Source of the DNA: an uncultured Planctomycetaceae bacterium
Lineage (GTDB): Bacteria; Planctomycetota; Phycisphaerae; Sedimentisphaerales; UBA12454
Length of the DNA stretch: 64,000 bases
NCBI GenBank assembly: GCA_964619675.1
Contig: CAZUEO010000009.1
Span: 139 to 64,138 of the forward strand
Direction of reading: 5' to 3'
Part shown: in pieces, positions 2 to 49,509 of the stretch
How positions within the stretch are numbered: position 1 is the first letter of the stretch
Layout: the number at the start of each line of letters is the position of its first letter
The notes under the pieces: generated by a model
What the model was told of the DNA's origin: nothing
Seen by the model: only the letters and a program-made list of their open reading frames with translations
Database searches by the model: none
Program-made: the position numbers and the translations under genes

Positions 2-487
2 TTGCCAAACAAAGTTTTGCTTAAAAAAAATCAAAAAAGTTTTTATCTCGGCTTCTGCCAAAGTTATCCTGATGAGCCGTTGCCTGTTCAATTAAAAATC
101 CCGGGCAGTGTTTGCTTTGCTGACTGGATTATTGAAACCGAAATTTTGTCTGCTGATAAATTCAATATCGAAAAAATCAAAAATGATAAAAATAATTTCA
201 CCGAATGGTTCGACTTTGAACTGATAAAGCCGCCTTTGATTGCTCGATGCAGACAGCAGGCAGATAGATTTAAACCCTTTGGGCTCGGTGTATCCAAAAA
301 GATTGGCAAATTTATAACATCAGCCAAGCTTGATATCGACCTGCGAAAAAAGACTTTTCTTGTCTGTGATAGCGAAAAAATCCTTTGGCTTGTGCCAATA
401 CGAAGAGGCAGCAAAGCTTCAGTAACGAATATTAGCAAATGTTTGTTGCAAATAAAAATAAGAAGCACTCAGAAACAGGATATGTAG
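2..487 (+). CDS. tilS: tRNA(Ile)-lysidine synthetase, C-terminal part (5' end cut by window edge)
   Basis: The ORF runs off the 5' edge. The segment ARCRQQADRFKPFG...KKIGKFITSAKL...ILWLVPIRRG resembles the TilS C-terminal domain. Confidence 0.6.
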   Translation: MPNKVLLKKNQKSFYLGFCQSYPDEPLPVQLKIPGSVCFADWIIETEILSADKFNIEKIKNDKNNFTEWFDFELIKPPLIARCRQQADRFKPFGLGVSKKIGKFITSAKLDIDLRKKTFLVCDSEKILWLVPIRRGSKASVTNISKCLLQIKIRSTQKQDM

Positions 488-539
488 AGTCTGTTTTGTT
501 AATATTTAAAAATTTTTAAAAAATTTTTAAATTTTTCTC

Positions 540-569
540 TTGACAATACCCCCCGATAACCTTTATACT
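540..569 (+). promoter_or_regulatory. sigma70-like promoter for the PEP-CTERM gene
   Basis: TTGACA (540-545), 18-nt spacer, TATACT (564-569). An A/T tract at 501-536 (aaaaatttttaaaaaatttttaaattttt) looks like an UP element. The 647 start has a GGAGGAG SD. Confidence 0.45.
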
Positions 570-646
570 ACGCTCAATTAAAATAACCGTAAATCCTTAA
601 GTATAGACATCTCAGAAAGTTTGGCGCAGGATTTTATGGAGGAGTA

Positions 647-1456
647 ATGAGAAAACAAGGGAAGAAGGGAAGGAGCAACATTAGGGCGGGGGTTGTATGT
701 ACACTTTTAGTTATTGTCTTTACGGCTTCTGCTTTTGGTCAAAATTTTAGTTATACTAATGTAGCTGCTCCGCCAACCGGCGAAGCGAATCATGCTGAAA
801 TCCTTCATAACATTTACGGCGGCACGTTTACCCAGCAAGCGTCATCAGTATCAGGCTTGTTAGTAGACTATGGGAACACCAGTAACATCGTGGCCAGGAG
901 AGTTTACGATTTTGACGATGAGTATGTCACTTTGGATGTACTGACAGATACGCTGGAAGGCAAAGTAGATCAAATCTGGACGGATGGTACCGTAACAGTA
1001 ACAGCAGAAGCAAAATATGCTTGTTACAACCAGTCATTCGGCTGGAATGGAGGTGGGACATCCACTGCAAACTACTACGAATTGCTTACGGATGACGATA
1101 TAGGAAATGGAGCAGCTGTTGTTGGTATTGACGGAGATTTCCTCTGGGGCAGCTGGCCTACCGATGATGATAAATGGTGGGATGAGGAGGGTGGCTACTG
1201 GTGTCCTTGGCCGGAGGAGGAAAAATGGTGGACGTATGAAATCAAGAACAATGATCTTAAAGACCACTTTGTAACGTATAAAATCGAGGGGCTTGGCGGT
1301 GAGGAAACTGTATGGCTGCTGTTCATGGAAGACGTTCATTACTGTCAGTCGGATCACGATTTTAATGATTTTGTAGTTGAGTTGTCAGCAATTCCTGAGC
1401 CGGCGACAATTGCACTATTACTCCTTGGTGGTTTGTTCTTAAGAAGAAAAAGTTAA
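647..1456 (+). CDS. secreted PEP-CTERM sorting-domain protein
   Basis: N-terminal signal peptide (VVCTLLVIVFTASAFG). The C-terminus IPEPATIALLLLGGLFLRRKS has the PEP motif, a TM helix and a basic tail. Confidence 0.8.
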   Translation: MRKQGKKGRSNIRAGVVCTLLVIVFTASAFGQNFSYTNVAAPPTGEANHAEILHNIYGGTFTQQASSVSGLLVDYGNTSNIVARRVYDFDDEYVTLDVLTDTLEGKVDQIWTDGTVTVTAEAKYACYNQSFGWNGGGTSTANYYELLTDDDIGNGAAVVGIDGDFLWGSWPTDDDKWWDEEGGYWCPWPEEEKWWTYEIKNNDLKDHFVTYKIEGLGGEETVWLLFMEDVHYCQSDHDFNDFVVELSAIPEPATIALLLLGGLFLRRKS

Positions 1457-1548
1457 GACTTTAGACGGTTGCTGAAATCAGCACCGATGCACAATATAAA
1501 TGCCCGAATCAGAGGTTCAAAATCCTGATCCGGGTAATTTTTTAATGA

Positions 1549-1818
1549 TACAATTATATCACGCCTGACTTTCCTGCATTTGGAATCATTGAGAATACCG
1601 CTAATGAGATATGGAGCGGCAGCAACGCCTATTATCACAAGTCGCAGGATGCAGGCGATGACTCAGCCGGTGCATTGTACGATTACTCATTTGCGACGGA
1701 CATTGTAAAAGCAACGGTAGCTGTGTTTGCGCAGGAAGCCATCCTGATTCCTGAACCCGCCACAATTCTTTTATTAACTTTTGGCGGTTTGATTCTGCAA
1801 AAATTCCGCAAGCCCTGA
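1549..1818 (+). pseudogene. start-less remnant of a second PEP-CTERM protein
   Basis: Frame 1 is open from the stop at 1546-1548 to TGA 1816-1818 and ends ...AQEAILIPEPATILLLTFGGLILQKFRKP*. It has no ATG or GTG and only a late TTG (1675), and no signal peptide. It is absent from the ORF track. Confidence 0.5.
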
Positions 1819-1917
1819 TTTGTGAATCATTCGCAGGTTTTAAGCTTATCGCACTGCATGCGGCCTGCAAATTCAATATTCAATCCAAAAGTCTATCTGC
1901 TTCCTGTGGATTTCTCC

Positions 1918-1946
1918 TTGACATTCCCCTGCCCTATCTCTAAAAT
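1918..1946 (+). promoter_or_regulatory. sigma70-like promoter for gap-pgk-rpe
   Basis: TTGACA (1918-1923), 17-nt spacer, TAAAAT (1941-1946), about 85 nt upstream of the gap start. Confidence 0.5.
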
Positions 1947-2031
1947 CCCTGTTCCGTAAATTTTGTAATCTGGCGGGTAAACACCCTGTCAACTTAACTT
2001 TAACTCTTATAATATGTTAAGGAGGCTCTAA

Positions 2032-3060
2032 ATGGCGACCAAAGTTGGTATTAACGGTTTCGGCAGGATAGGCCGGGCGGTGGCGAGAATCCTGATGGAA
2101 AAAAAGACAGGTCTTGAGCTGGTAGCGGTAAATGACCTGACAGACGCCAAGACAAATGCCCATATGTTCAAATACGACAGTGCAATGGGCACTTGGGGCG
2201 GCACAATAAGCGCAGCGGAAGATTCGCTGGTTATCAACGGGAAAAAAATAAAGGTACTTTCCGTAAAGAATCCCGCGGAACTGCCGTGGAGGGATATGGG
2301 CGTTGACATTGTCGTCGAGTCCACAGGCATTTTCAGGGATCGCGAATCGGCAAAAGGCGGTTATGGCGACCACATCAAAGCGGGCGCAAAAAAAGTTCTA
2401 CTGACAGTTCCGGCCAAGGATGAAATCGACCTGACAATGGTAATGGGCGTCAACGATAATATGCTGAAACCCGAACACAATTGTGTTTCAAATGCAAGCT
2501 GCACGACAAACTGCCTCGCTCCTCCTGCAAAGGTAATCCACGAGGTCTTCGGTATTGAAAAAGGTTTTATGACTACGGTTCATGCCTATACCAACGACCA
2601 GCATGTGGCCGACCTTTTCCACAAAGACCTGCGGCGCGCACGTGCAGCAGCGGTAAATATCATCCCGACCACGACAGGCGCCGCAAGAGCGGTTGGGAAA
2701 GTCATACCCGACCTGAACGGCAAGCTCGACGGCTTTGCGCTTCGTGTGCCGGTGCTCGTAGGCAGTGTGGTTGACCTTGTAGTGGAGTTGAAAAAGGAAG
2801 TTACGATTGAGGAAGTCAACGCTGCTGTAAAGAAAGCTGCCGAAGGCCCGATGAAAGGCATATTGATTTACTGTGACGAGCCGATAGTCAGCAGCGATGT
2901 TATTATGAATCCCGCTTCGAGCGTCTTTGATGCGCTGAGCACAATGACCATTCCGAAAGGCAAGGGAAAAATGATTAAGGTCGTGAGCTGGTATGACAAC
3001 GAATGGGGCTATTCAAACCGCACTGTTGATATAATGGAAAGACTTGCAAAGATGCTGTAA
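2032..3060 (+). CDS. gap: glyceraldehyde-3-phosphate dehydrogenase
   Basis: [12 protein letters not shown]-binding motif, [12 protein letters not shown] catalytic-Cys motif, WYDNEWGYS near the C-terminus. AGGAGG SD. Confidence 0.95.
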
Positions 3061-6370: not shown

Positions 6371-7243
6371 ATGAGCATAATAAAAACAATGGCAAAACAG
6401 TCAAAATCACAATGGGAGGGCTTTAGCTTAAAGCCGAGGAAGGAAATGCCTGAAGGGCTATGGCTTAAATGCCCGGGCTGCGAGAAACTCCTCTTTAAAA
6501 AAGCAGTCGAGGAAAATCTAAATGTTTGTCCTGAATGTGACTACCATTTCCGCATTGGAGCCGACAAAAGATTGAAATACCTCGTCGATAAAGGCTCATT
6601 CGAGCAGATTCTGACCGGAATGGTTACGGCAGACCCGCTGGAATTCAAGTTCAGGGGAACCACATATAAAGACAGAGCAAAGGCCGCTGAAAAGGTCTCG
6701 GCAGGCAAAGAGGCTATGCTCATCGGCAAGGCCTTTATCAAAGGCAGAGGCCTGATGCTGGCGGTAATGGATTTTAATTACCTAGGTGGCTCAATGGGAG
6801 CCGTAGTCGGTGAAAAATTGTGTACCGCTATTGAAAAGGCAATGGAAAACTCGCTGCCGCTGGTAGTGGTAAGCTCGACAGGCGGGGCAAGAATGCACGA
6901 AGGCGTCGTCTCTTTGGGGCAGATGGCTAAAACAAGCGCTGCCTTGGCCAAGTTTGATGACCAGGAAGGTCTTTTTATATCAGTCCTGACTGATCCGACC
7001 ACTGGCGGGGTTACGGCCAGCTTTGCAATGTTGGGTGATGTTATCATAGCTGAGCCGGGGGCATTGATAGGTTTTGCAGGGCCGAGAACAATCTATGAAA
7101 CCATCAAGGTCGAACTGCCTGAAGGCTTCCAAAGGGCTGAATTTCTGCTTGAACACGGCTTCGTCGATATGATTGTACGCCGCAAAGACTTACGAAGCGA
7201 AATAGCCCGGCTGATTGACTACTGCGGGAAAAACCTAGCGTAA
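6371..7243 (+). CDS. accD: acetyl-CoA carboxylase carboxyltransferase beta subunit
   Basis: N-terminal zinc ribbon CPGC...CPEC, and carboxyltransferase core LGGSMG / TGGARMHEG. Confidence 0.9.
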   Translation: MSIIKTMAKQSKSQWEGFSLKPRKEMPEGLWLKCPGCEKLLFKKAVEENLNVCPECDYHFRIGADKRLKYLVDKGSFEQILTGMVTADPLEFKFRGTTYKDRAKAAEKVSAGKEAMLIGKAFIKGRGLMLAVMDFNYLGGSMGAVVGEKLCTAIEKAMENSLPLVVVSSTGGARMHEGVVSLGQMAKTSAALAKFDDQEGLFISVLTDPTTGGVTASFAMLGDVIIAEPGALIGFAGPRTIYETIKVELPEGFQRAEFLLEHGFVDMIVRRKDLRSEIARLIDYCGKNLA

Positions 7244-7301
7244 AAACCCAAACAAAAATCATACTTTGCAATCCACACTTTTGTCCGTATAATTCCCAAC
7301 T

Positions 7302-8351
7302 ATGGGTTATTTCCGTGAAAATGTGGAAAAAATGACAGGTTACGAGCCGGGCTTTCAGCCATCTGAAACAGATATAATCAAGCTCAATACCAATGAAAAT
7401 CCATACCCGCCAAGCCCAAAAGCAACAGAGGCGATAAAGAATATAAGTCCTGCAGAGCTAAGGAGATACCCGCAGCCAATGGCGGATAGTTTCAGAGAGA
7501 CGGCAGGTAAAATTTTAGGTGTGCAGCCGAAAAATATTATCTGCGTCAACGGCGGCGATGAATTACTGAACATCGCAATAAGAGCATTCTGCGATGAGAA
7601 ACGAGCCGTTGCTTATCCTGCGCCGACATACTCGCTTTATCCTGTGCTGGCACAAATGGCAAACTGCCCTGCCGTCGAGATTCCGTTCGATAAGGAATTT
7701 AACCTGCCGGCAAAACTGGCCTCAAGCGGCGCGGCATTAACAGTCGTCTGCAATCCAAATGCGCCAAGCGGAACATTCATACCAAAAGAAGAATTGTCGC
7801 AGCTTGCAGAAGAAATAAAGGGAATACTTCTGATTGACGAGGCTTATGTCGATTTTGCAGAAGATAACTGCCTTGAGCTTGTAAAAAAATTCGACAATGT
7901 GATTATCCTTCGCACGATGAGCAAAGGCTATTCGCTGGCAGGTCTGCGATTCGGATTCGGCATCGCAAATGAAGAAATAATAAACGGCCTGATGAAACTT
8001 AAAGATTCCTATAACGTCGATGCTGTTGCGATTGCCGCTGCGACGGCTGCGATACAGGACCAGCAGTATTTCAAAAATAATATTCAAAAAATCAAGATAG
8101 AGCGAAAGTTCATGACGGAAAGATTAACGGAGCTCGGATTTGAAGTGCCCGCAAGCCAGGCAAATTTTGTGCTTGCAAAACCCTCAAAAGCCAGAGCTAT
8201 CGATATCTATGAAAAACTCAAGGACAGAAACATATACGTCCGATACTGGGCATATCCCGATATAAAAGATAAGCTGAGAATTACGGTTGGGACCGGCGAG
8301 CAGAATGAAAAACTTATTGACGCATTAAAGGAAATTTTGGCCGAGGGATAA
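7302..8351 (+). CDS. hisC: histidinol-phosphate aminotransferase
   Basis: LNTNENPYPPSP, NPNAPSG, and the TMSKGYSLAGLRFG PLP-lysine motif. Confidence 0.9.
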   Translation: MGYFRENVEKMTGYEPGFQPSETDIIKLNTNENPYPPSPKATEAIKNISPAELRRYPQPMADSFRETAGKILGVQPKNIICVNGGDELLNIAIRAFCDEKRAVAYPAPTYSLYPVLAQMANCPAVEIPFDKEFNLPAKLASSGAALTVVCNPNAPSGTFIPKEELSQLAEEIKGILLIDEAYVDFAEDNCLELVKKFDNVIILRTMSKGYSLAGLRFGFGIANEEIINGLMKLKDSYNVDAVAIAAATAAIQDQQYFKNNIQKIKIERKFMTERLTELGFEVPASQANFVLAKPSKARAIDIYEKLKDRNIYVRYWAYPDIKDKLRITVGTGEQNEKLIDALKEILAEG

Positions 8352-39475: not shown

Positions 39476-40573
39476 ATGAAACCACTTTATATCAGCGCCA
39501 CCGGCCAGGACAGCGGCAAGACCAGCGTAATATGCGGCCTGATTCAGTATTTACGCCAGCATGGCCATAACCCCGGTTATTTCAAGCCTGTCGGCCAGCG
39601 TTACGTCCAGTACGAAGGCCACAACATTGACGAGGATGCCGTCCTTGCTCACCAGGCCTTTGGATTTGATGACCGCCCTTCTGATATGAGCCCCATAGCG
39701 GTCGCGGAAGGTTTTACAACCCAGTTTATTTTAAAGCCCGATGTTTCAGCCCTCGAAAAACGGATAATGGAAAGTTTTCAAAAGCTCAGGGAAAAACATT
39801 CGATGCTCATCGTGGAAGGCACAGGCCACGCAGGCGTTGGAAGCTGTTTTGGCCTGTCGAACGCCCGCGTCGCGCAAATGCTCGGTGCAAATGTCGTCAT
39901 AGTCTCATCAGGCGGCATTGGCAGGCCGATTGATGAAATCTCAATGTCGCTCGCCTTGTTTAAGGAATACAAGATTAACGTCATTGGCGTAATCCTGAAC
40001 AAAATTTATCCGCACAAATACGAAAAAATCCGTGCTATTGCCCCCAAAGGGCTGCAGCTAATCGGCACAAAGCTGGTTGGCAATATTCTTTACGACTCAT
40101 CGCTGTCGTTTTTCACTGTCGGCCAGGTAGCCGAGGAGTTTAACTACGATGTGCTGTGCGGCAGGCAATCGCTTTCCAACAAAATCGGCCATACCGTCAT
40201 TGCCGCGATGGAGCCGCAGAATGCATTGCATTATATCGAAAAAAACACCCTTATAATCACGCCTGGCGACCGCATTGACAACATATTGCTTACTTTGGCC
40301 TTGTCCGACTCGGCCGATTTTCATGATAAGATATGCAGCGGCGGCCTTATACTCACTGGCGGCTTAAAGCCCGATTCAACAATTCTGTCGCTTCTTTTAA
40401 AGAGCAGTATTCCGGTCCTTCTTACGGATGAGGATACTTTTACTGTTACAGCCAAGATGAAGGATTTGCATTTTAAGATTCGTTCTGACGATGTCGATAA
40501 AATCGCCCGCACTCACGAGCTTTTGCGCGACAACGTCGATGTCGATGTTATTCTTCAGAACTTATCTGCCTAA
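39476..40573 (+). CDS. phosphotransacetylase-family N-terminal-type protein (BioD-like P-loop + DRTGG domain)
   Basis: ISATGQDSGKTSV P-loop, VEGTGH, and a C-terminal DRTGG-like LIITPGDR..GGLILTGG. No Pta catalytic domain. Confidence 0.65.
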   Translation: MKPLYISATGQDSGKTSVICGLIQYLRQHGHNPGYFKPVGQRYVQYEGHNIDEDAVLAHQAFGFDDRPSDMSPIAVAEGFTTQFILKPDVSALEKRIMESFQKLREKHSMLIVEGTGHAGVGSCFGLSNARVAQMLGANVVIVSSGGIGRPIDEISMSLALFKEYKINVIGVILNKIYPHKYEKIRAIAPKGLQLIGTKLVGNILYDSSLSFFTVGQVAEEFNYDVLCGRQSLSNKIGHTVIAAMEPQNALHYIEKNTLIITPGDRIDNILLTLALSDSADFHDKICSGGLILTGGLKPDSTILSLLLKSSIPVLLTDEDTFTVTAKMKDLHFKIRSDDVDKIARTHELLRDNVDVDVILQNLSA

Positions 40574-44362: not shown

Positions 44363-46123
44363 ATGCTTGACCCTACAAAACTTAAGGATTGGCAGATTGC
44401 CGAAGCTGCTGAGGCTGATGCAAAACCCATCGTCAGGATTGCCGCCCAGCTTGGCATTAAGGAGGATGAAGTTATTCCTATGGGCAGGCTATTTGCCAAG
44501 ATTGACTATAAAAAAGTCCTTAGCAGGGTTGGCTCATTTCAAAAAGCAAAATATATTGATATCACAGCTATAACCCCTACGCCGCTTGGCGAAGGTAAAA
44601 CAACTACTACTATCGGCCTTATTGAGGGTCTTGGCAAACTCGGCAAGAAGGTTTCCGGCGCTATCAGGCAACCCAGCGGCGGCCCGACCTTTAACATTAA
44701 AGGCTCAGCCGCAGGCGGCGGCCTGGCTCAATGTATCCCGCTGGCTCCTCTTTCAATCAGGTTCACAGGCGATATTGATTCAATTACCAATGCGAACAAT
44801 CTCGCGATGGTGGCTCTTACGAGCAGGCTTCAGCACGAGAACAACTATGACGACGCCAGATTAGCTAAAAGCGGCTTAAAGAGGCTCGATATTGACCCAA
44901 AAAGAGTTCAAATGAAGTGGGCGATAGATTTCTGTGCCCAGGCCTTGCGGAACATAATCATCGGCAGAGGCGGGAAAATGGACGGCTTTGAGATGGAATC
45001 AGGATTCGCGATTTCCGTTTCCAGCGAGGTTATGGCGATTTTATCCGTCGCAAAGGACCTTGCGGATTTGCGCAAACGAATGGCAAAAATCGTCGTCGCA
45101 TACGGCAAAAACGGAAACGAAGTTACCACAGCAGACCTCGAAGTTGACGGCGCAATGACAAGCTGGATGCTGGACGCAATAAATCCAAATTTGATACAGA
45201 CGATTGAAGGGCAGCCGGTCTTTGTTCACGCAGGGCCGTTTGCAAATATCGCTATCGGCCAAAGTTCCATCATAGCTGATATGCTCGGAACAAGGCTTGC
45301 CGATTATCATATTACCGAAAGTGGATTCGGTACCGATATCGGCTTTGAAAAATTCTGGAATTTAAAATGCCGCTTGTCAGGCCTTACGCCCAATTCAGTG
45401 GTTATCGTGGCGACAATCAGAGCCCTGAAAATGCATGGCGGCGGCCCTGCCGTCAAGCCCGGCGCCGCTTTAAGCGAAGAATATACCAGGGAAAACCTCG
45501 AACTCGTCGAAAAAGGCTGCGAAAACCTGCTTGCTCATATAGAAATCGTCAAAAAAAGCGGTATCAAACCAATCATCTGTATTAACAGCTTTTCTGCCGA
45601 TACCAAACCTGAAATCGAGCTTGTAAAAAGGATTGCCGAGCAAAACGGGGCTTTATGCGCCGTCTCGCAGCATTGGCTCAAAGGCGGCGAAGGTGCAAAA
45701 GAGCTTGCCGAGATGGTTATATCGGTATCGCAGGAAAAAAATAATTTCAAATTTCTCTACGAACTTACAATGCCCTTACGACAGCGAATTGAACTTATAG
45801 CAAAACAGATTTATGGCGCTGACGGCGCCGAATACAACCCACAGGCCCTGGAAAAAATAAAAACGCTTGAAAAAGATTCTAATGCCGCAAAACTTGGAAT
45901 CTGTATGGCCAAGACGCACTTGTCGCTATCGCACGACCCGAATGTCAAAGGCAGGCCAAAAGGCTGGACACTGCCCGTAAGAGATATTATGATTTTCAAA
46001 GGCGCAGGCTTTATCGTGCCTGTGGCGGGTGATATAAAACTTATGCCCGGCACGGCTTCAAATCCTGCGTTCAGGAAAATCGACGTTGACGTCGAGACGG
46101 GAAAAGTCAAAGGCTTGTTTTAA
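44363..46123 (+). CDS. fhs: formate--tetrahydrofolate ligase
   Basis: ITPTPLGEGKTTTTIGL P-loop, HAGPFANIA, GFGTDIGFEKF. 586 aa. Confidence 0.95.
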   Translation: MLDPTKLKDWQIAEAAEADAKPIVRIAAQLGIKEDEVIPMGRLFAKIDYKKVLSRVGSFQKAKYIDITAITPTPLGEGKTTTTIGLIEGLGKLGKKVSGAIRQPSGGPTFNIKGSAAGGGLAQCIPLAPLSIRFTGDIDSITNANNLAMVALTSRLQHENNYDDARLAKSGLKRLDIDPKRVQMKWAIDFCAQALRNIIIGRGGKMDGFEMESGFAISVSSEVMAILSVAKDLADLRKRMAKIVVAYGKNGNEVTTADLEVDGAMTSWMLDAINPNLIQTIEGQPVFVHAGPFANIAIGQSSIIADMLGTRLADYHITESGFGTDIGFEKFWNLKCRLSGLTPNSVVIVATIRALKMHGGGPAVKPGAALSEEYTRENLELVEKGCENLLAHIEIVKKSGIKPIICINSFSADTKPEIELVKRIAEQNGALCAVSQHWLKGGEGAKELAEMVISVSQEKNNFKFLYELTMPLRQRIELIAKQIYGADGAEYNPQALEKIKTLEKDSNAAKLGICMAKTHLSLSHDPNVKGRPKGWTLPVRDIMIFKGAGFIVPVAGDIKLMPGTASNPAFRKIDVDVETGKVKGLF

Positions 46124-46243: not shown

Positions 46244-46255
46244 ATGGAGTATAAA

Positions 46256-47140
46256 ATGGCAGCCAAAATTATCGACGGCAAACAAATCGCAGCGGATATA
46301 CGAGCCGAACTAAAGGCTGAAGTTGAAAAACTAAAGGCAAAAGGCATTACGCCCGGGCTTGGCGTTATCCTCGTCGGCGCAAATGCCGCCAGTATCTCTT
46401 ATGTAACCGCAAAGGAAAAGGCCTGCGGCGAAGTCGGGATTTATTCAGATGATAACCGCCTGCCTGCCGAGACGAGCGAGTCGGACTTGCTTGCCCTCGT
46501 CAATAAAATGAACAAAGATGCCAAAATCAACGGCATTTTAGTTCAGCTGCCCCTGCCAAAACACATCGACGAGCAGAAAGTCCTGCTTGCAATCGACCCT
46601 GCGAAGGACGTTGACGGCTTTCATCCGGTAAGCGTCGGCAAAATGGTCGTCGGGCAAAAGGCATTTTTGCCCTGCACGCCAAATGGCGCTATCCAGTTGT
46701 TACTTCGCAGCGGCGTAAAACTCGAAGGCGCTGAGGTCGTAATCGTCGGCAGAAGCAATATCGTCGGCAAACCGCTTGCAAATATGCTTATTCAAAAGTC
46801 CCCTACCGGCAATGCTACGGTTACAATCTGCCATACGAGGACAAAGGATGTAGCTGCTCATACAAGGAGGGCTGATATAGTCATTGCCGCGGCGGGCAAA
46901 GTGAATGCCATAACGGCTGATATGATAAAAGATGGTGCCGTTGTTATCGATGTCGGCATAAACAGAATTGAGGATTCTACAAAAAAGAGCGGATTCAGGC
47001 TCGTAGGCGATGTGGATTTTGAAAATGTCAGTAAAAAAGCAAGCTTAATAACACCCGTGCCCGGCGGAGTCGGGCCGATGACAATTACAATGCTGCTCTA
47101 TAACACCGTTGAAAGTGCAAAAATGGCGTCGGGCGTTTAA
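46256..47140 (+). CDS. folD: bifunctional methylene-THF dehydrogenase / methenyl-THF cyclohydrolase
   Basis: MAAKIIDGK start is typical of FolD, with GGAG 7 nt upstream; ATG 46244 is an alternative. [24 protein letters not shown]. Confidence 0.93.
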
Positions 47141-47164
47141 TTTAGGCAGATTGCCACTATTTTA

Positions 47165-47193
47165 TTGACATAACTTATTTTGTTTTTTATACT
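47165..47193 (+). promoter_or_regulatory. near-consensus promoter of the MNT/HEPN cassette
   Basis: TTGACA (47165-47170), 17-nt spacer, TATACT (47188-47193). The ATG at 47200 lies 6 nt after the -10 element. Confidence 0.5.
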
Positions 47194-47199
47194 TAGGGT

Positions 47200-47478
47200 A
47201 TGTATTCGTCAAATCTAAAACAAATAGTAAAGTCCTGTGCCGAGCAATACGGGGTGAAAAGTGTCTGGCTGTTCGGCTCCGCAGTAGAGGATGAACAGCA
47301 TGCAAACGATATAGACCTTGCGGTTGAAGGCCTGGAGCCTGAAAAATTTTTTGATTTCTACGGCAGATTGTTTTTTGAGCTGCCGAAGATGGTTGACCTC
47401 GTTGACCTTTCACAAAATCCTCCGATAACATCCATAGTGCGACAGAAGGGAATCCGCATTTATGAGCGCAGAAGCTGA
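47200..47478 (+). CDS. MNT-type nucleotidyltransferase (antitoxin-like, MntA family)
   Basis: 92 aa with the minimal NTase motif LFGSAVEDEQHANDIDLAV. Confidence 0.8.
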   Translation: MYSSNLKQIVKSCAEQYGVKSVWLFGSAVEDEQHANDIDLAVEGLEPEKFFDFYGRLFFELPKMVDLVDLSQNPPITSIVRQKGIRIYERRS

Positions 47479-47872
47479 TTATATTTCCGCAGAACGCGAA
47501 AACATTTTGCGCACAGTAAAAATGACGGAAGATTTATTGTCGAAAAAAGACATCTCCGAATATGAAGTTATCGCATTGGGAAAATTACTGCAGGATATTT
47601 ATACAGGCATCGAACGAATATTTCGCACTCAACTTGAATCAATGAATATTAAAACCGACAAAACTCAAAGCTGGCACAAAGAGGCGCTTTTAGCAGCTAA
47701 AAAGCATAGCTTGGTATCAGAGGTTCAATTTAAGTGCTTCCGTGATTTGCTTTTGTTCAGGCATATGGAAATTCACGGATACGGTTATATGCTTGATAAG
47801 CAGCGGCTTTTAGAGCTTGCCAGGCCTGTGCCTGCTGTTTGCAGGGAATTTCTGGAGCATTTAAAACTGTAA
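47462..47872 (+). CDS. HEPN-domain protein (HepT-like toxin)
   Basis: 136 aa with the Rx4H motif in LLLFRHMEIHGYG. 17-nt overlap with the upstream NTase gene. Confidence 0.7.
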   Translation: MSAEADYISAERENILRTVKMTEDLLSKKDISEYEVIALGKLLQDIYTGIERIFRTQLESMNIKTDKTQSWHKEALLAAKKHSLVSEVQFKCFRDLLLFRHMEIHGYGYMLDKQRLLELARPVPAVCREFLEHLKL

Positions 47873-47876
47873 GAAT

Positions 47877-47963
47877 TGCGGCGTCGGGCCAATGACTATT
47901 ACTACGTTATTGTACAACACGGTCGAGAGCGCAAAAACCGCCGTCACAGAGCCGCGACAGTAA
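47877..47963 (+). pseudogene. detached, divergent copy of the folD 3' end
   Basis: Encodes [27 protein letters not shown], against the intact folD tail [24 protein letters not shown]. About 43 of 57 aligned nt are identical, with differences mainly at third codon positions. Confidence 0.75.
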
Positions 47964-47972
47964 TGGAGCGGT
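47946..47972. repeat. 27-bp inverted repeat, left copy
   Basis: ACAGAGCCGCGACAGTAATGGAGCGGT. The exact reverse complement is at 49325-49351. Confidence 0.95.
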
Positions 47973-48009
47973 AATTAAAACGTCATAAATAAATTATCTT
48001 TATTTACAT

Positions 48010-48510
48010 TCAAGGTTCTGTTTTGCCTAATGCCATAATTTTGCCCTGACCTGTTTTGACATATTCAATTGCGGAATGGAGTCTTTCTTTTGTCCATATA
48101 TATTTTGTACTTCCGTGTCTTGTCCAATATTTATCAGCCGGAATATTGCCTGTTTTTTTGATTGCATTTGTGGCGTATCTTTTAAAATCAGACATCATTT
48201 TTTCTGGTTCTTCCTGCCCACTGACAACAATATGGATATGATTGCTTCTGACGTGTGCAGAATGAGCATGCCAGCCGCGAAATTTGCACACATCCAAAAT
48301 CGCCTGCAATACTATCTCTCTGCACAACGCATCTAATTTAATTGATGGATTCTTTAAATTACTTTCCTCTTTTATATTCAGCCCGGGATTATTAGGCAGA
48401 AATTTTTCACCAAAGCGATTATGTTTTTTATCCACACTAGCACGTTCATCGCCGTGCAGCCACGTTCCGTATGTTGTAAAAGTTATCAGATATGCAAGCG
48501 GATATTCCAT
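48010..48510 (-). CDS. IS200/RAYT-like HUH (Y1) transposase-family protein
   Basis: YLITFTTYGTWLHGDERASVD N-terminus, HUH motif SNHIHIVV, C-terminal Tyr region HSAIEYVKTGQG. Confidence 0.7.
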   Translation of the reverse strand: MEYPLAYLITFTTYGTWLHGDERASVDKKHNRFGEKFLPNNPGLNIKEESNLKNPSIKLDALCREIVLQAILDVCKFRGWHAHSAHVRSNHIHIVVSGQEEPEKMMSDFKRYATNAIKKTGNIPADKYWTRHGSTKYIWTKERLHSAIEYVKTGQGKIMALGKTEP

Positions 48511-48550: not shown

Positions 48551-49219
48551 TCACTTATCTTGATTCGTTACCCACCTTTTTCTCCATTCTTTATACCACC
48601 GTTTTGATTTAATACCTGATCTAAATTTCCATTTTTTTAAACGTGTTAAAAGTCCTTTATTCAAAAGCTCATCTAACGCCTCATTCTCAAAATAATAAGA
48701 CCCTTGGAGTAATTTAATCTTACAGGACTCTATTAAAAGATCGTTGAGCATCGAAATCATTTGCTTGGCGTCTTTGTTTTTTATTCTCGTAGGCACAGAA
48801 ATTCGGCTATTGACATCTATTTTACCTTTGTCTCTATCTAATCCCACATATATTGCTCTCTGTTTTTTTAATTCAAGTTGCTTTTTCTCAACGAACTCAA
48901 CAAACTTTGGTGAATAGTCAGAAGCCATCCCCCATCCAAAAAAAGCTTTATGTTTTTCATGATGGAGGTATAAAAGTTTTAACCATTCTTGTTCAAAATC
49001 TTCATCTGGCCAATTATTGTTTGTATCCGATGACCAATAATAATGTTCAACCCAATATGATTTAGCAAGTTCTTCCATCGCAAGTACTGATAGATGGAAT
49101 GAAGAAGGAAAGGACTTATTCTTATATAAGAGGATTGAATCAAAATGAAGCCTTAACCCATTCTTAAATGACTCTGTTGCAATTCTTTTAAACTTATATT
49201 TAGAAAGATTTTTTCTCAT
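48551..49219 (-). CDS. AbiV-like (HEPN-type) abortive-infection protein
   Basis: FKNGLRLHFDSILLYKNKSFPSSFHLSVLAMEELAKSYWV fits the AbiV N-terminal helix pattern (N..rL..D...L......A..L..la.EE..K). The gene is AT-rich. Confidence 0.55.
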   Translation of the reverse strand: MRKNLSKYKFKRIATESFKNGLRLHFDSILLYKNKSFPSSFHLSVLAMEELAKSYWVEHYYWSSDTNNNWPDEDFEQEWLKLLYLHHEKHKAFFGWGMASDYSPKFVEFVEKKQLELKKQRAIYVGLDRDKGKIDVNSRISVPTRIKNKDAKQMISMLNDLLIESCKIKLLQGSYYFENEALDELLNKGLLTRLKKWKFRSGIKSKRWYKEWRKRWVTNQDK

Positions 49220-49265: not shown

Positions 49266-49324
49266 GCCTAAATAAACGCCCTGTGAGCCCCCAATGTAAA
49301 TGAGGGGTAATTTATGTTATTTTG

Positions 49325-49351
49325 ACCGCTCCATTACTGTCGCGGCTCTGT
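49325..49351. repeat. 27-bp inverted repeat, right copy
   Basis: ACCGCTCCATTACTGTCGCGGCTCTGT, the exact reverse complement of 47946-47972. Confidence 0.95.
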
Positions 49352-49509
49352 TTGTTCAAAATTTAATTTCGCATAATCTCTGTAAAGTTCTTTGGCGGCC
49401 TCGTCATAAGCCTTTGCGACCAACCAAAACCTCTGGCATTTACAACACAGGTCGGTATAATAATGCGGCTGTTTTTAAAATAAGGCCATATACGAATAGG
49501 GAGCTCAAA

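Follow-up and report, generated by a model that had tools for sequence, protein, structure and literature searches.

An MNT/HEPN toxin–antitoxin cassette in a duplicated folD 3' end: probable C-terminal displacement of a housekeeping gene in uncultured Sedimentisphaerales

Two 3' ends of folD around an MNT/HEPN gene pair

We analysed 64,000 nucleotides of an uncultured Planctomycetaceae bacterium (Sedimentisphaerales; GenBank assembly GCA_964619675.1, contig CAZUEO010000009.1, positions 139 to 64,138 of the forward strand), a stretch referred to here as the window. In it, the housekeeping gene folD is followed by a 0.8-kb toxin–antitoxin (TA) cassette of the MNT/HEPN type and then by a start-less copy of its own 3' end (Table 1). 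The folD product is a bifunctional methylenetetrahydrofolate dehydrogenase/cyclohydrolase with homologs of 78–94% identity, and its start codon lies at 46244 or at 46256, the latter being that of database protein P0121. An earlier reading of this DNA, made from the sequence alone, had placed the folD end at 47140, followed by a TA pair and a start-less tail copy, and all of these statements held. The duplicated part is a conserved last-helix segment (codons GGVGPM...SAK), termed X below; X_L denotes its functional copy and X_R the displaced one.

Table 1 Features of the folD locus, in window coordinates.
Feature	Position (strand)	Remarks
fhs	44363–46123	upstream of folD in the window
folD body	46244–47063 (+)	Pfam THF_DHG_CYH, E 1e-43; THF_DHG_CYH_C, E 9e-68
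X_L	47064–47122 (+)	functional copy of the conserved last-helix segment; left copy of direct repeat D1
Cassette-borne replacement tail, MASGV and stop	47123–47140 (+)	homologous to the tail of carrier L178, ATCGCGTCAAGTCTTTAA
Cassette promoter, TTGACA-17-TATACT	47165–47193 (+)	11/12 consensus matches, strong, sigma-70-type
MNT gene	47200–47478 (+)	92-residue nucleotidyltransferase, MntA-like predicted antitoxin
HEPN gene	47462–47872 (+)	136 residues, HepT-like predicted RNase toxin; 17-nt overlap with MNT
Junction of HEPN stop and folD fragment	47873–47877 (+)	homologous in the window, L162, L163/164, L165, L166/167, L176, L177/178 and L028
X_R	47878–47937 (+)	displaced, start-less copy of the folD last-helix segment (remnant); codons from 47880
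Displaced native tail, TAV and TEPRQ-stop	47937–47963 (+)	final 18 nt are REP-like repeat
Inverted-repeat left arm, 36 nt (27 nt perfect)	47946–47981	neighbouring context, outside the cassette; partner arm 49316–49351

The two repeat copies (47064–47123 and 47878–47937) were identical at 46 of 60 nucleotides (77%), or at 43 of 57 when counted from 47066. X_L and X_R differed in 12 codons and in one amino acid (M to T), where neutral simulation predicted 9.0 amino-acid changes and no simulated set reached 1 or fewer. The copies come from different folD alleles and, in agreement with the earlier reading, not from a recent tandem duplication. Stretches coding for GVGPMT occurred only twice in the 64 kb, at the folD end and in the remnant, and the window held no further copy of the folD tail or of the cassette right end. 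Since an independent Logan assembly (SRR9705735, L161) showed an identical arrangement, the structure is not an assembly artefact.

X_R has no start codon, and an in-frame stop lies five codons upstream of it. We considered translation of the remnant and rejected it on these two grounds and because the remnant is in the +1 frame relative to the HEPN gene; the lack of a conserved frameshift site, and a 71-nt insert that breaks the remnant in L163–L165, also disfavoured it. The folD gene is predicted to remain functional after insertion, with the displaced resident end start-less and, by the same features, untranslated.

By domains and motifs, the gene pair is assigned to the type VII, HepT–MntA-like (HEPN/MNT) class of TA pairs. 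The active-site motif GSx10DxD of the MNT protein reads GSAVEDEQHANDID (residues 26–39), and Pfam scores were 44.0 bits for Polbeta (cutoff 26.9) and 31.5 for NTP_transf_2 (cutoff 21). Against the NCBIfam model MntA_antitoxin it scored 41.3 bits, under the equivalog cutoff of 60. The HEPN protein matched Pfam HepT-like_2 at 45.7 bits (cutoff 27; E 8e-12) and has the RNase motif RHMEIH (Rx4H), kept as R....HGYG in 119 of 120 homologs; searches of NCBIfam, PADLOC and the PDB gave no sequence match for it, and HI0073 (1NO5), related to the MNT protein at E 0.007, is the sole PDB relative of the pair. Ratios of nonsynonymous to synonymous divergence (dN/dS) were 0.07–0.17 for MNT in most pairs, with 0.53 in the near-identical pair L162/L163 as the exception, and 0.06–0.25 for HEPN, values that show purifying selection on both TA genes. 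The cassette promoter was kept in every carrier described below, and also in distant MNT–HEPN modules at other loci.

Carriers, cassette-free relatives and the native tail

The closest folD genes came from metagenome-assembled genomes (MAGs) of Sedimentisphaerales/Phycisphaerae. Among 160 folD loci from genome and metagenome scans, a second tail copy was found in only one other, L028, where it sits at the same codon (GGVGPM) as in the window and the cargo consists of DUF5678 and clan-AA aspartyl protease genes. Directly before the L028 remnant stand about 30 nt matching the 3' end of the window HEPN gene, together with the same short junction. The order is therefore folD–[DUF5678–aspartyl protease]–30-nt HEPN 3' remnant–junction–X–native tail, with the HEPN stump fused to the protease open reading frame (ORF).

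Further carriers were found by an HEPN protein search followed by context look-ups; the cassette was present in five more assembled contexts from Sedimentisphaerales relatives. Contexts were retrieved for six of the seven closest HEPN homologs (83–90% identity; C-terminus FLEHxK or FLENxK), and all of them had the same folD-fragment junction. The complete folD–tail'–MNT–HEPN–junction–X_R structure is present in L162, L163/164, L176 and L178, and HEPN–junction–X_R is carried by L165 and L166/167; in L177, MNT–HEPN–X_R lies behind a different upstream gene. L162 contains a two-module array, folD–[MNT–HEPN]–X–tail–[DUF5678...], and from such arrangements the locus appears to behave as a sequential-displacement array. 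A general habit of the MNT–HEPN family to duplicate the end of its upstream gene was considered and rejected, as the distant HEPN homologs (at most 78% identity) lie at unrelated loci beside ArsP, nth and other genes with no duplicated upstream gene end.

The folD fragment begins 7–10 nt past the HEPN stop in the carriers and 5 bases past it in the window; the window and L176 each lack 3 nt of the junction. Alignment of the junctions indicated a single common origin of the joint between HEPN and the folD fragment, and the tails distal to X_R differed from lineage to lineage. Because the HEPN-stop/folD-fragment junction is the same in every carrier, the short (16-nt) GC-rich folD fragment, CCGGCGGCGTCGGGCC, most probably travels with the cassette as part of the mobile unit.

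Cassette-free relatives (L001, L081, L181 and L182) allowed the two tails to be compared, as the sequence-only reading had proposed, and the remnant tail proved to be of the ancestral type. The remnant tail of L028, LVLSKVEGTAAGIK followed by a stop, matches the functional tail of the uninterrupted L081, LVLSKVEGTAAGL followed by a stop (shared LVLSKVEGTAAG), and over 31 codons of remnant plus tail the two loci differed at 14 nucleotides and in no amino acid. In L178 the remnant tail reads LVLSEVEGG..., against functional tails LVLSEVEGSR-stop and LVLSEVEGNR-stop in P0124 and P0126, found among the 120 closest folD proteins. For the window, the functional folD proteins P0136, P0138, P0141 and P0191 of relatives end in SAKM(T/A)TEPRQ-stop, and the functional folD end of L181 runs into a 27-mer, ACAGAGCCGCGACAGTAATGGAGCGGT, identical to that following the window remnant. 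The last five codons of the latter, TEPRQ-stop, derive from a REP-like (repetitive extragenic palindrome) inverted repeat. As the distal tails match functional tails of cassette-free relatives in three comparisons, the remnant is, by sequence, the native folD end. The proposal that the TA module is an insertion in the folD 3' end, bringing a replacement tail and leaving the original behind, is thereby supported by comparative data. Orthology of the X copies themselves, judged by identity to cassette-free relatives, was dropped as a criterion after mixed results over 57 nt.

The remnants have decayed only slightly: besides M to T in the window, we found V to I, S to N, the 71-nt insert (L163–L165) and a degenerate start (L176). 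In 12 comparisons involving X_R copies there were 0–2 amino-acid changes against 5.5–9.5 expected (P ≤ 0.0004). Synonymous divergence (dS) of folD among carriers was 0.9–1.2, at which a neutral remnant would be unrecognisable; the remnants were thus recently parts of a working folD, in each lineage separately. Since they also differ from each other almost only synonymously, displacement is taken to have been recent and repeated, and the remnants to be young.

For the cassette genes, dS was 0.03–0.7 (MNT) and 0.3–0.8 in most pairs (HEPN), with 1.0–1.7 in HEPN pairs involving L176. The TA genes therefore seem to be younger than the divergence of their hosts, and synonymous divergence below that of folD in most pairs indicates that the cassette spreads horizontally. 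In the pair L162–L163, MNT dS was 0.03 and HEPN dS 0.29, and this difference inside one cassette argues for recombination between cassettes and for mosaic TA genes.

Upstream synteny varies among carriers (fhs–folD or AAA_26/DRTGG–folD), and the layouts of cassette-free relatives range from folD–REP array–AP2 gene (L181) to folD followed directly by DUF4954 (L182). In L182–L187 and sibling contigs (folD 90% identical), an AAA_26/DRTGG gene, a 44-residue formyltetrahydrofolate synthetase (FTHFS) fragment, folD and DUF4954 follow one another, DUF4954 directly after folD; fhs is reduced to a stump, and the island is absent. The AAA_26/DRTGG gene of the window lies at 39476–40573, 6 kb upstream of folD.

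Several variants of the locus were also observed. At L166 (3034–3453) the left side of the cassette is replaced: the HEPN gene has a new N-terminus, MNT is absent and the gene lies behind opposite-strand genes, so that a toxin would have to be explained in the company of no antitoxin. At L177 (1–1431) a 476-residue non-folD gene abuts the cassette 28 nt beyond the expected folD stop position. In L031 (about 6720–6820, from a 'Pirellulales' MAG) a run of N, masked or a gap, starts exactly after the folD GGVGP codons, possibly because the assembly broke at a duplicated tail. The insert of about 71 nt inside X_R of L163 (4057–4127), L164 and L165, which have the same HEPN protein, is palindromic (CTGGCCTTCGTAGCC...CTGCGAAGGACGGG...) and looks like a small miniature inverted-repeat transposable element (MITE) or REP-like element. 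One to three tandem copies of the motif CRCRGATT stand between the –35 box and the folD stop that the cassette supplies (window 47145–47152, copy GGCAGATT; L162 about 2150–2180; L178 about 610–690; L028 about 768–790). The motif is present with both types of cassette cargo and absent downstream of folD in cassette-free relatives, and it might serve as an operator or as an accessory site for recombination.

Joints, mechanism and alternatives

A constant 5' part, a new 3' end with cargo and start-less old ends, the marks of a C-terminal displacement locus, were seen in the window, L028, L162, L163, L176 and L178, with stacked modules in L162 and an arbitrary joint in L028. We propose that the 0.8-kb MNT/HEPN cassette would enter folD by recombination at the start of X. 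With the incoming DNA would come a working folD end (a copy of X, then a short xAxGx tail closed by a stop codon), a sigma-70-type promoter belonging to the cassette, and the overlapping MNT and HEPN genes. The host's original X, with its native tail and stop, would be shifted downstream and persist as a start-less, untranslated remnant. folD would act as the left anchor, and the short GC-rich folD fragment at the cassette right end would mark the place of joining to the new host folD, where the right joint would form in register. Ordinary recombination between cassettes would follow thereafter.

We give this reading as a whole, C-terminal displacement of folD by a horizontally spreading cassette with a homology-anchored joint, a probability of roughly 0.6. 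Its parts differ in strength. The displacement architecture and its mobility are observations of which we are highly confident, and the odds are about even for the homology-anchored joining mechanism, in which we infer the enzymology of the joint. The arbitrary HEPN stump of L028, the ragged L166 and L177 and the stacked array of L162 point to illegitimate joints combined with host recombination, as do the AP2/HNH gene 3' remnants at the opposite border of the island.

On the left, identity between L162 and L163 jumps from about 84% to 97–100% precisely where X_L ends, past the SAK codon. On the right, codons specific to each lineage start at about codon 3 of X_R (in L028 GGT CCT, shared with L081), which confines the L028 joint to within about 14 nt of the left edge of X and of a heterology border. 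These left and right boundaries are incompatible with one simple exchange. We interpret the L162/L163 boundary as the product of a later conversion between cassettes, consistent with the contrast between MNT and HEPN dS in this pair, and the primary joint would then fall where X begins on its GC-rich left side, CCGGCGGCGTCGGGCC. Identity showed no gradient in the direction of the folD 3' end. GCGG and GTCGGGCC are common to both repeat copies in the window, where the identical core is no longer than 8–11 nt.

A 10-nt string, GGCGTCGGGC, had been put forward as possible junction microhomology. It does occur exactly twice in the window, at 47125 and 47880, but the role proposed for it was rejected. 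The copy at 47125 lies inside the cassette-borne tail and not at a joint, and the string is not conserved in homologous cassettes, other carriers having CGCGTCAAGTC or GCCGCTGCAGGC at the corresponding place. The likeness is coincidental, because native xASGx-stop tails (for example AGCGTCCGGCA in L182) resemble Gly-Val-Gly codons through the codon composition of Ala-Ser-Gly.

Site-specific integration is the strongest competitor. A miniature integrative cassette could be moved by a tyrosine or serine recombinase encoded elsewhere, with the GC-rich PGGVGP codons of folD as attB, the same core plus a mimic of the folD tail as attP, the new functional end as attL and the displaced native end as attR. 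This is the attL/attR scheme drawn on in the sequence-only reading. We consider this possible but distinctly less probable than joining anchored by homology. It would account neatly for the coding-type conservation in both X copies, and an element-supplied 3' end and empty sites in relatives, both of which it predicts, were found. The confinement of the L028 joint to the left edge of X, with lineage-specific codons from codon 3, and the constancy of the right end despite differing cargo also speak for it, and the CRCRGATT copies lie beside the replacement tail, where arm-type sites could be. In the five MNT–HEPN carriers the X_L copies were slightly more alike (47–50 of 57 nt) than the X_R copies (44–49 of 57), a difference over a length too short for proof.

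Against such integration stands, first, the lack of a recombinase. Our Pfam scan of the window covered 58/59 selected ORFs (non-overlapping, at least 90 residues) and, in agreement with the sequence-only reading, found among them neither an integrase nor another site-specific recombinase (RuvAB, RmuC and a Y1 HUH-like gene were all that appeared); the called-gene Pfam lists of L162–L187, among them the carrier loci L162–L178, had none either. The joint of the L028 cargo swap, with its 30-nt HEPN stump, is arbitrary, the left ends of L177 and L166 are ragged, and divergent X_L copies adjoin near-identical cassettes in L162/L163. We found no conserved dyad-symmetric core and no viral or plasmid link. 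The attC-like or att-like structure for which a test at the junctions had been proposed did not materialise: folds on both strands of both junctions gave z-scores of –1.39 to +1.53, no better than shuffled sequence. An integron gene cassette was rejected for want of an attC-like hairpin and an integrase, and a phage or viral-contig link was rejected because neither a degenerate X pattern nor the HEPN protein had a match in IMG/VR. Where site-specific and homology-driven recombination had been offered as alternatives, we thus obtained no positive evidence for a site-specific recombinase and prefer the homology-anchored joint.

Several observations count against this preference and against the reading built on it. 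The L028 joint lies unusually near the heterology border for a RecA crossover, as would be expected of a site-specific core, and the model needs a secondary cassette-to-cassette conversion because the X_L copies of L162 and L163 differ (84%) beside a cassette that is 97–100% identical. Tests of X-copy orthology to relatives are uninformative over only 57 nt. No occupied/empty pair closer than about 84% nucleotide identity was found, and no exact crossover was mapped. All carriers fall in one folD clade, which also holds four cassette-free members. Independent insertions are for this reason not countable, and vertical descent contributes, with spread limited to relatives. The dS contrast between genes may, moreover, have causes other than transfer.

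The shared clade raises the question of whether the cassette entered only once, long ago, in the common Sedimentisphaerales ancestor of its members and has since been passed on vertically only, with cassette-free members arising by precise loss between X_L and X_R. The single origin of the junction agrees with this, and loss through direct repeats would be clean. A neutral remnant as old as that ancestor (folD dS about 1) should, however, be full of amino-acid changes and indels, and the remnants differ almost only synonymously. For MNT, dS reaches at most about half the folD value in most pairs, for L162–L163 it is 30-fold lower, and the upstream synteny of carriers is not uniform. We regard purely vertical inheritance as very improbable.

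Least probable of all is homing, in which a bordering HNH/AP2 endonuclease would cut cassette-free folD in X and repair from an occupied allele would copy the cassette. Homing enzymes typically target conserved sequence of essential genes, HNH_3+AP2 genes or their remnants occur in the folD–DUF4954 island of the window, L028, L162 and L181, and resistance would follow from synonymous recoding of X. The case is purely circumstantial; L181 has the endonuclease gene and no TA cassette, and the window has only a 90-nt endonuclease remnant.

Beyond the displacement reading, one could see here a minimal selfish element of a new kind, consisting of a TA operon that has a mimic of the most conserved folD 3' segment as its sole 'mobility module' and is stabilised by addiction; we think this unlikely. 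Such a cassette could enter any related folD and leave folD intact, either through a dedicated recombinase acting in trans or by recombinase-free homing on the folD fragment, possibly aided by HNH/AP2.

Neighbouring repeat unit, wider meaning and known systems

Next to the cassette, the 36-nt repeat whose arms are listed in Table 1 encloses two genes, at 48010–48510 and 48551–49219, encoding a Y1 HUH protein (REP-associated tyrosine transposase (RAYT)/IS200-like, with an HIH motif) and the abortive-infection protein AbiV. The Y1 gene scored 24.5 bits against Pfam Y1_Tnp (cutoff 23) and 21 bits against NCBIfam REP_Tyr_transpos (cutoff 80). The 27-nt perfect inverted repeat flanks this Y1/AbiV unit and not the TA cassette; it provides the TEPRQ-stop codons of the folD remnant and also, read from the opposite strand, those of a remnant of an AP2-domain gene. 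In L181 (GCA_041652575.1) the same repeat is present 10.8 times in tandem, with the 36-nt unit CCGCGACAGTAATGGAGCGGTCATTCTTTTTATGTC, at 6880–7269, directly after a functional folD ending in ...MTTEPRQ-stop, and an inverted copy follows at 7407–7433. Such behaviour is REP-like, and in this case the repeat makes up the terminus of an essential gene.

At the far border of the island, an HNH_3+AP2 gene leaves 3' remnants: a 90-nt stump in the window (49334–49423, minus strand) and, in L181, a 5'-truncated copy beside the full gene (about 7434–7660 and 7665–8258, minus strand). Gene-end duplication thus occurs on both flanks of the folD–DUF4954 island.

If the displacement reading is right, the 'tip displacement' dynamics of polymorphic toxin genes would also act on an ordinary essential metabolic gene, and a tiny TA or defence cassette could spread with no mobility gene of its own by taking along a short stretch copied from a strongly conserved coding region. 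Hidden cassettes and defence-island seeding points in uncultured bacteria could then be sought through a signature, namely a second gene 3' end, start-less and synonymously diverged, a few hundred bases downstream of the first; for folD it takes the form GGNGTNGGNCCNATGAC...N(300–3000)...GGNGTNGGNCCNATGAC. For annotation, this means that a duplicated gene end, or a variable C-terminal tail on a conserved enzyme, can be a scar left by cassette turnover.

Among known systems, the gene pair itself resembles type VII HepT/MntA pairs, of which Shewanella SO_3165/3166, Aphanizomenon HepT–MntA and Haemophilus HI0073/HI0074 are examples. In these too, a small GSx10DxD MNT gene lies upstream of, and overlaps, an Rx4H HEPN gene, and the genes are under purifying selection. 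The present pair differs in that its HEPN protein belongs to the HepT-like_2 family, with no sequence-level PDB relative, and in that its MNT protein falls below the MntA equivalog cutoff.

Islands and prophages that carry an integrase insert at gene 3' ends, as in tRNA and tmRNA genes, SCCmec in rlmH and SGI1 in trmE. They share with the folD locus the duplicated gene end, the replacement supplied by the element, the native end at the far junction and the existence of relatives free of the element. The folD cassette differs from them in its size of 0.8 kb, the failure to find an integrase, a core of at most 8–11 nt and the ragged joints of its variants.

In Neisseria, minimal mobile elements are found between two conserved genes and involve no duplication of a gene end; on Acinetobacter plasmids, inverted XerC/D sites delimit the pdif modules. 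Like the folD cassette, both are small units with one or two genes, commonly a TA pair, that have no mobility genes and rely on host recombination between fixed flanks. The folD cassette differs from the former by duplicating a gene end and from the latter by the absence of XerC/D sites.

There is a likeness in architecture to the rhs, cdiA-CT and type VI secretion system (T6SS) effector–immunity loci, in which C-terminal displacement reportedly takes place (Jackson 2009; Poole 2011; Kirchberger 2017). There, as at folD, a conserved 5' part is kept and the incoming module consists of a new 3' end with accessory genes; old 3' ends persist downstream as start-less orphans that keep the conserved stretch, arrays are ordered by acquisition time and modules spread horizontally. 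The folD locus departs from this pattern in that the gene is a housekeeping enzyme and not a toxin, the swapped tip is a functionally neutral tail of 3–8 residues, the cargo is a TA operon complete in itself, promoter included, and the displaced piece is only about 85 nt long. A homology anchor combined with an illegitimate joint (homology-facilitated illegitimate recombination), the mode of joining favoured here for folD, has been proposed for rhs, cdiA and T6SS effector–immunity arrays (Kirchberger 2017, PMC5361080).

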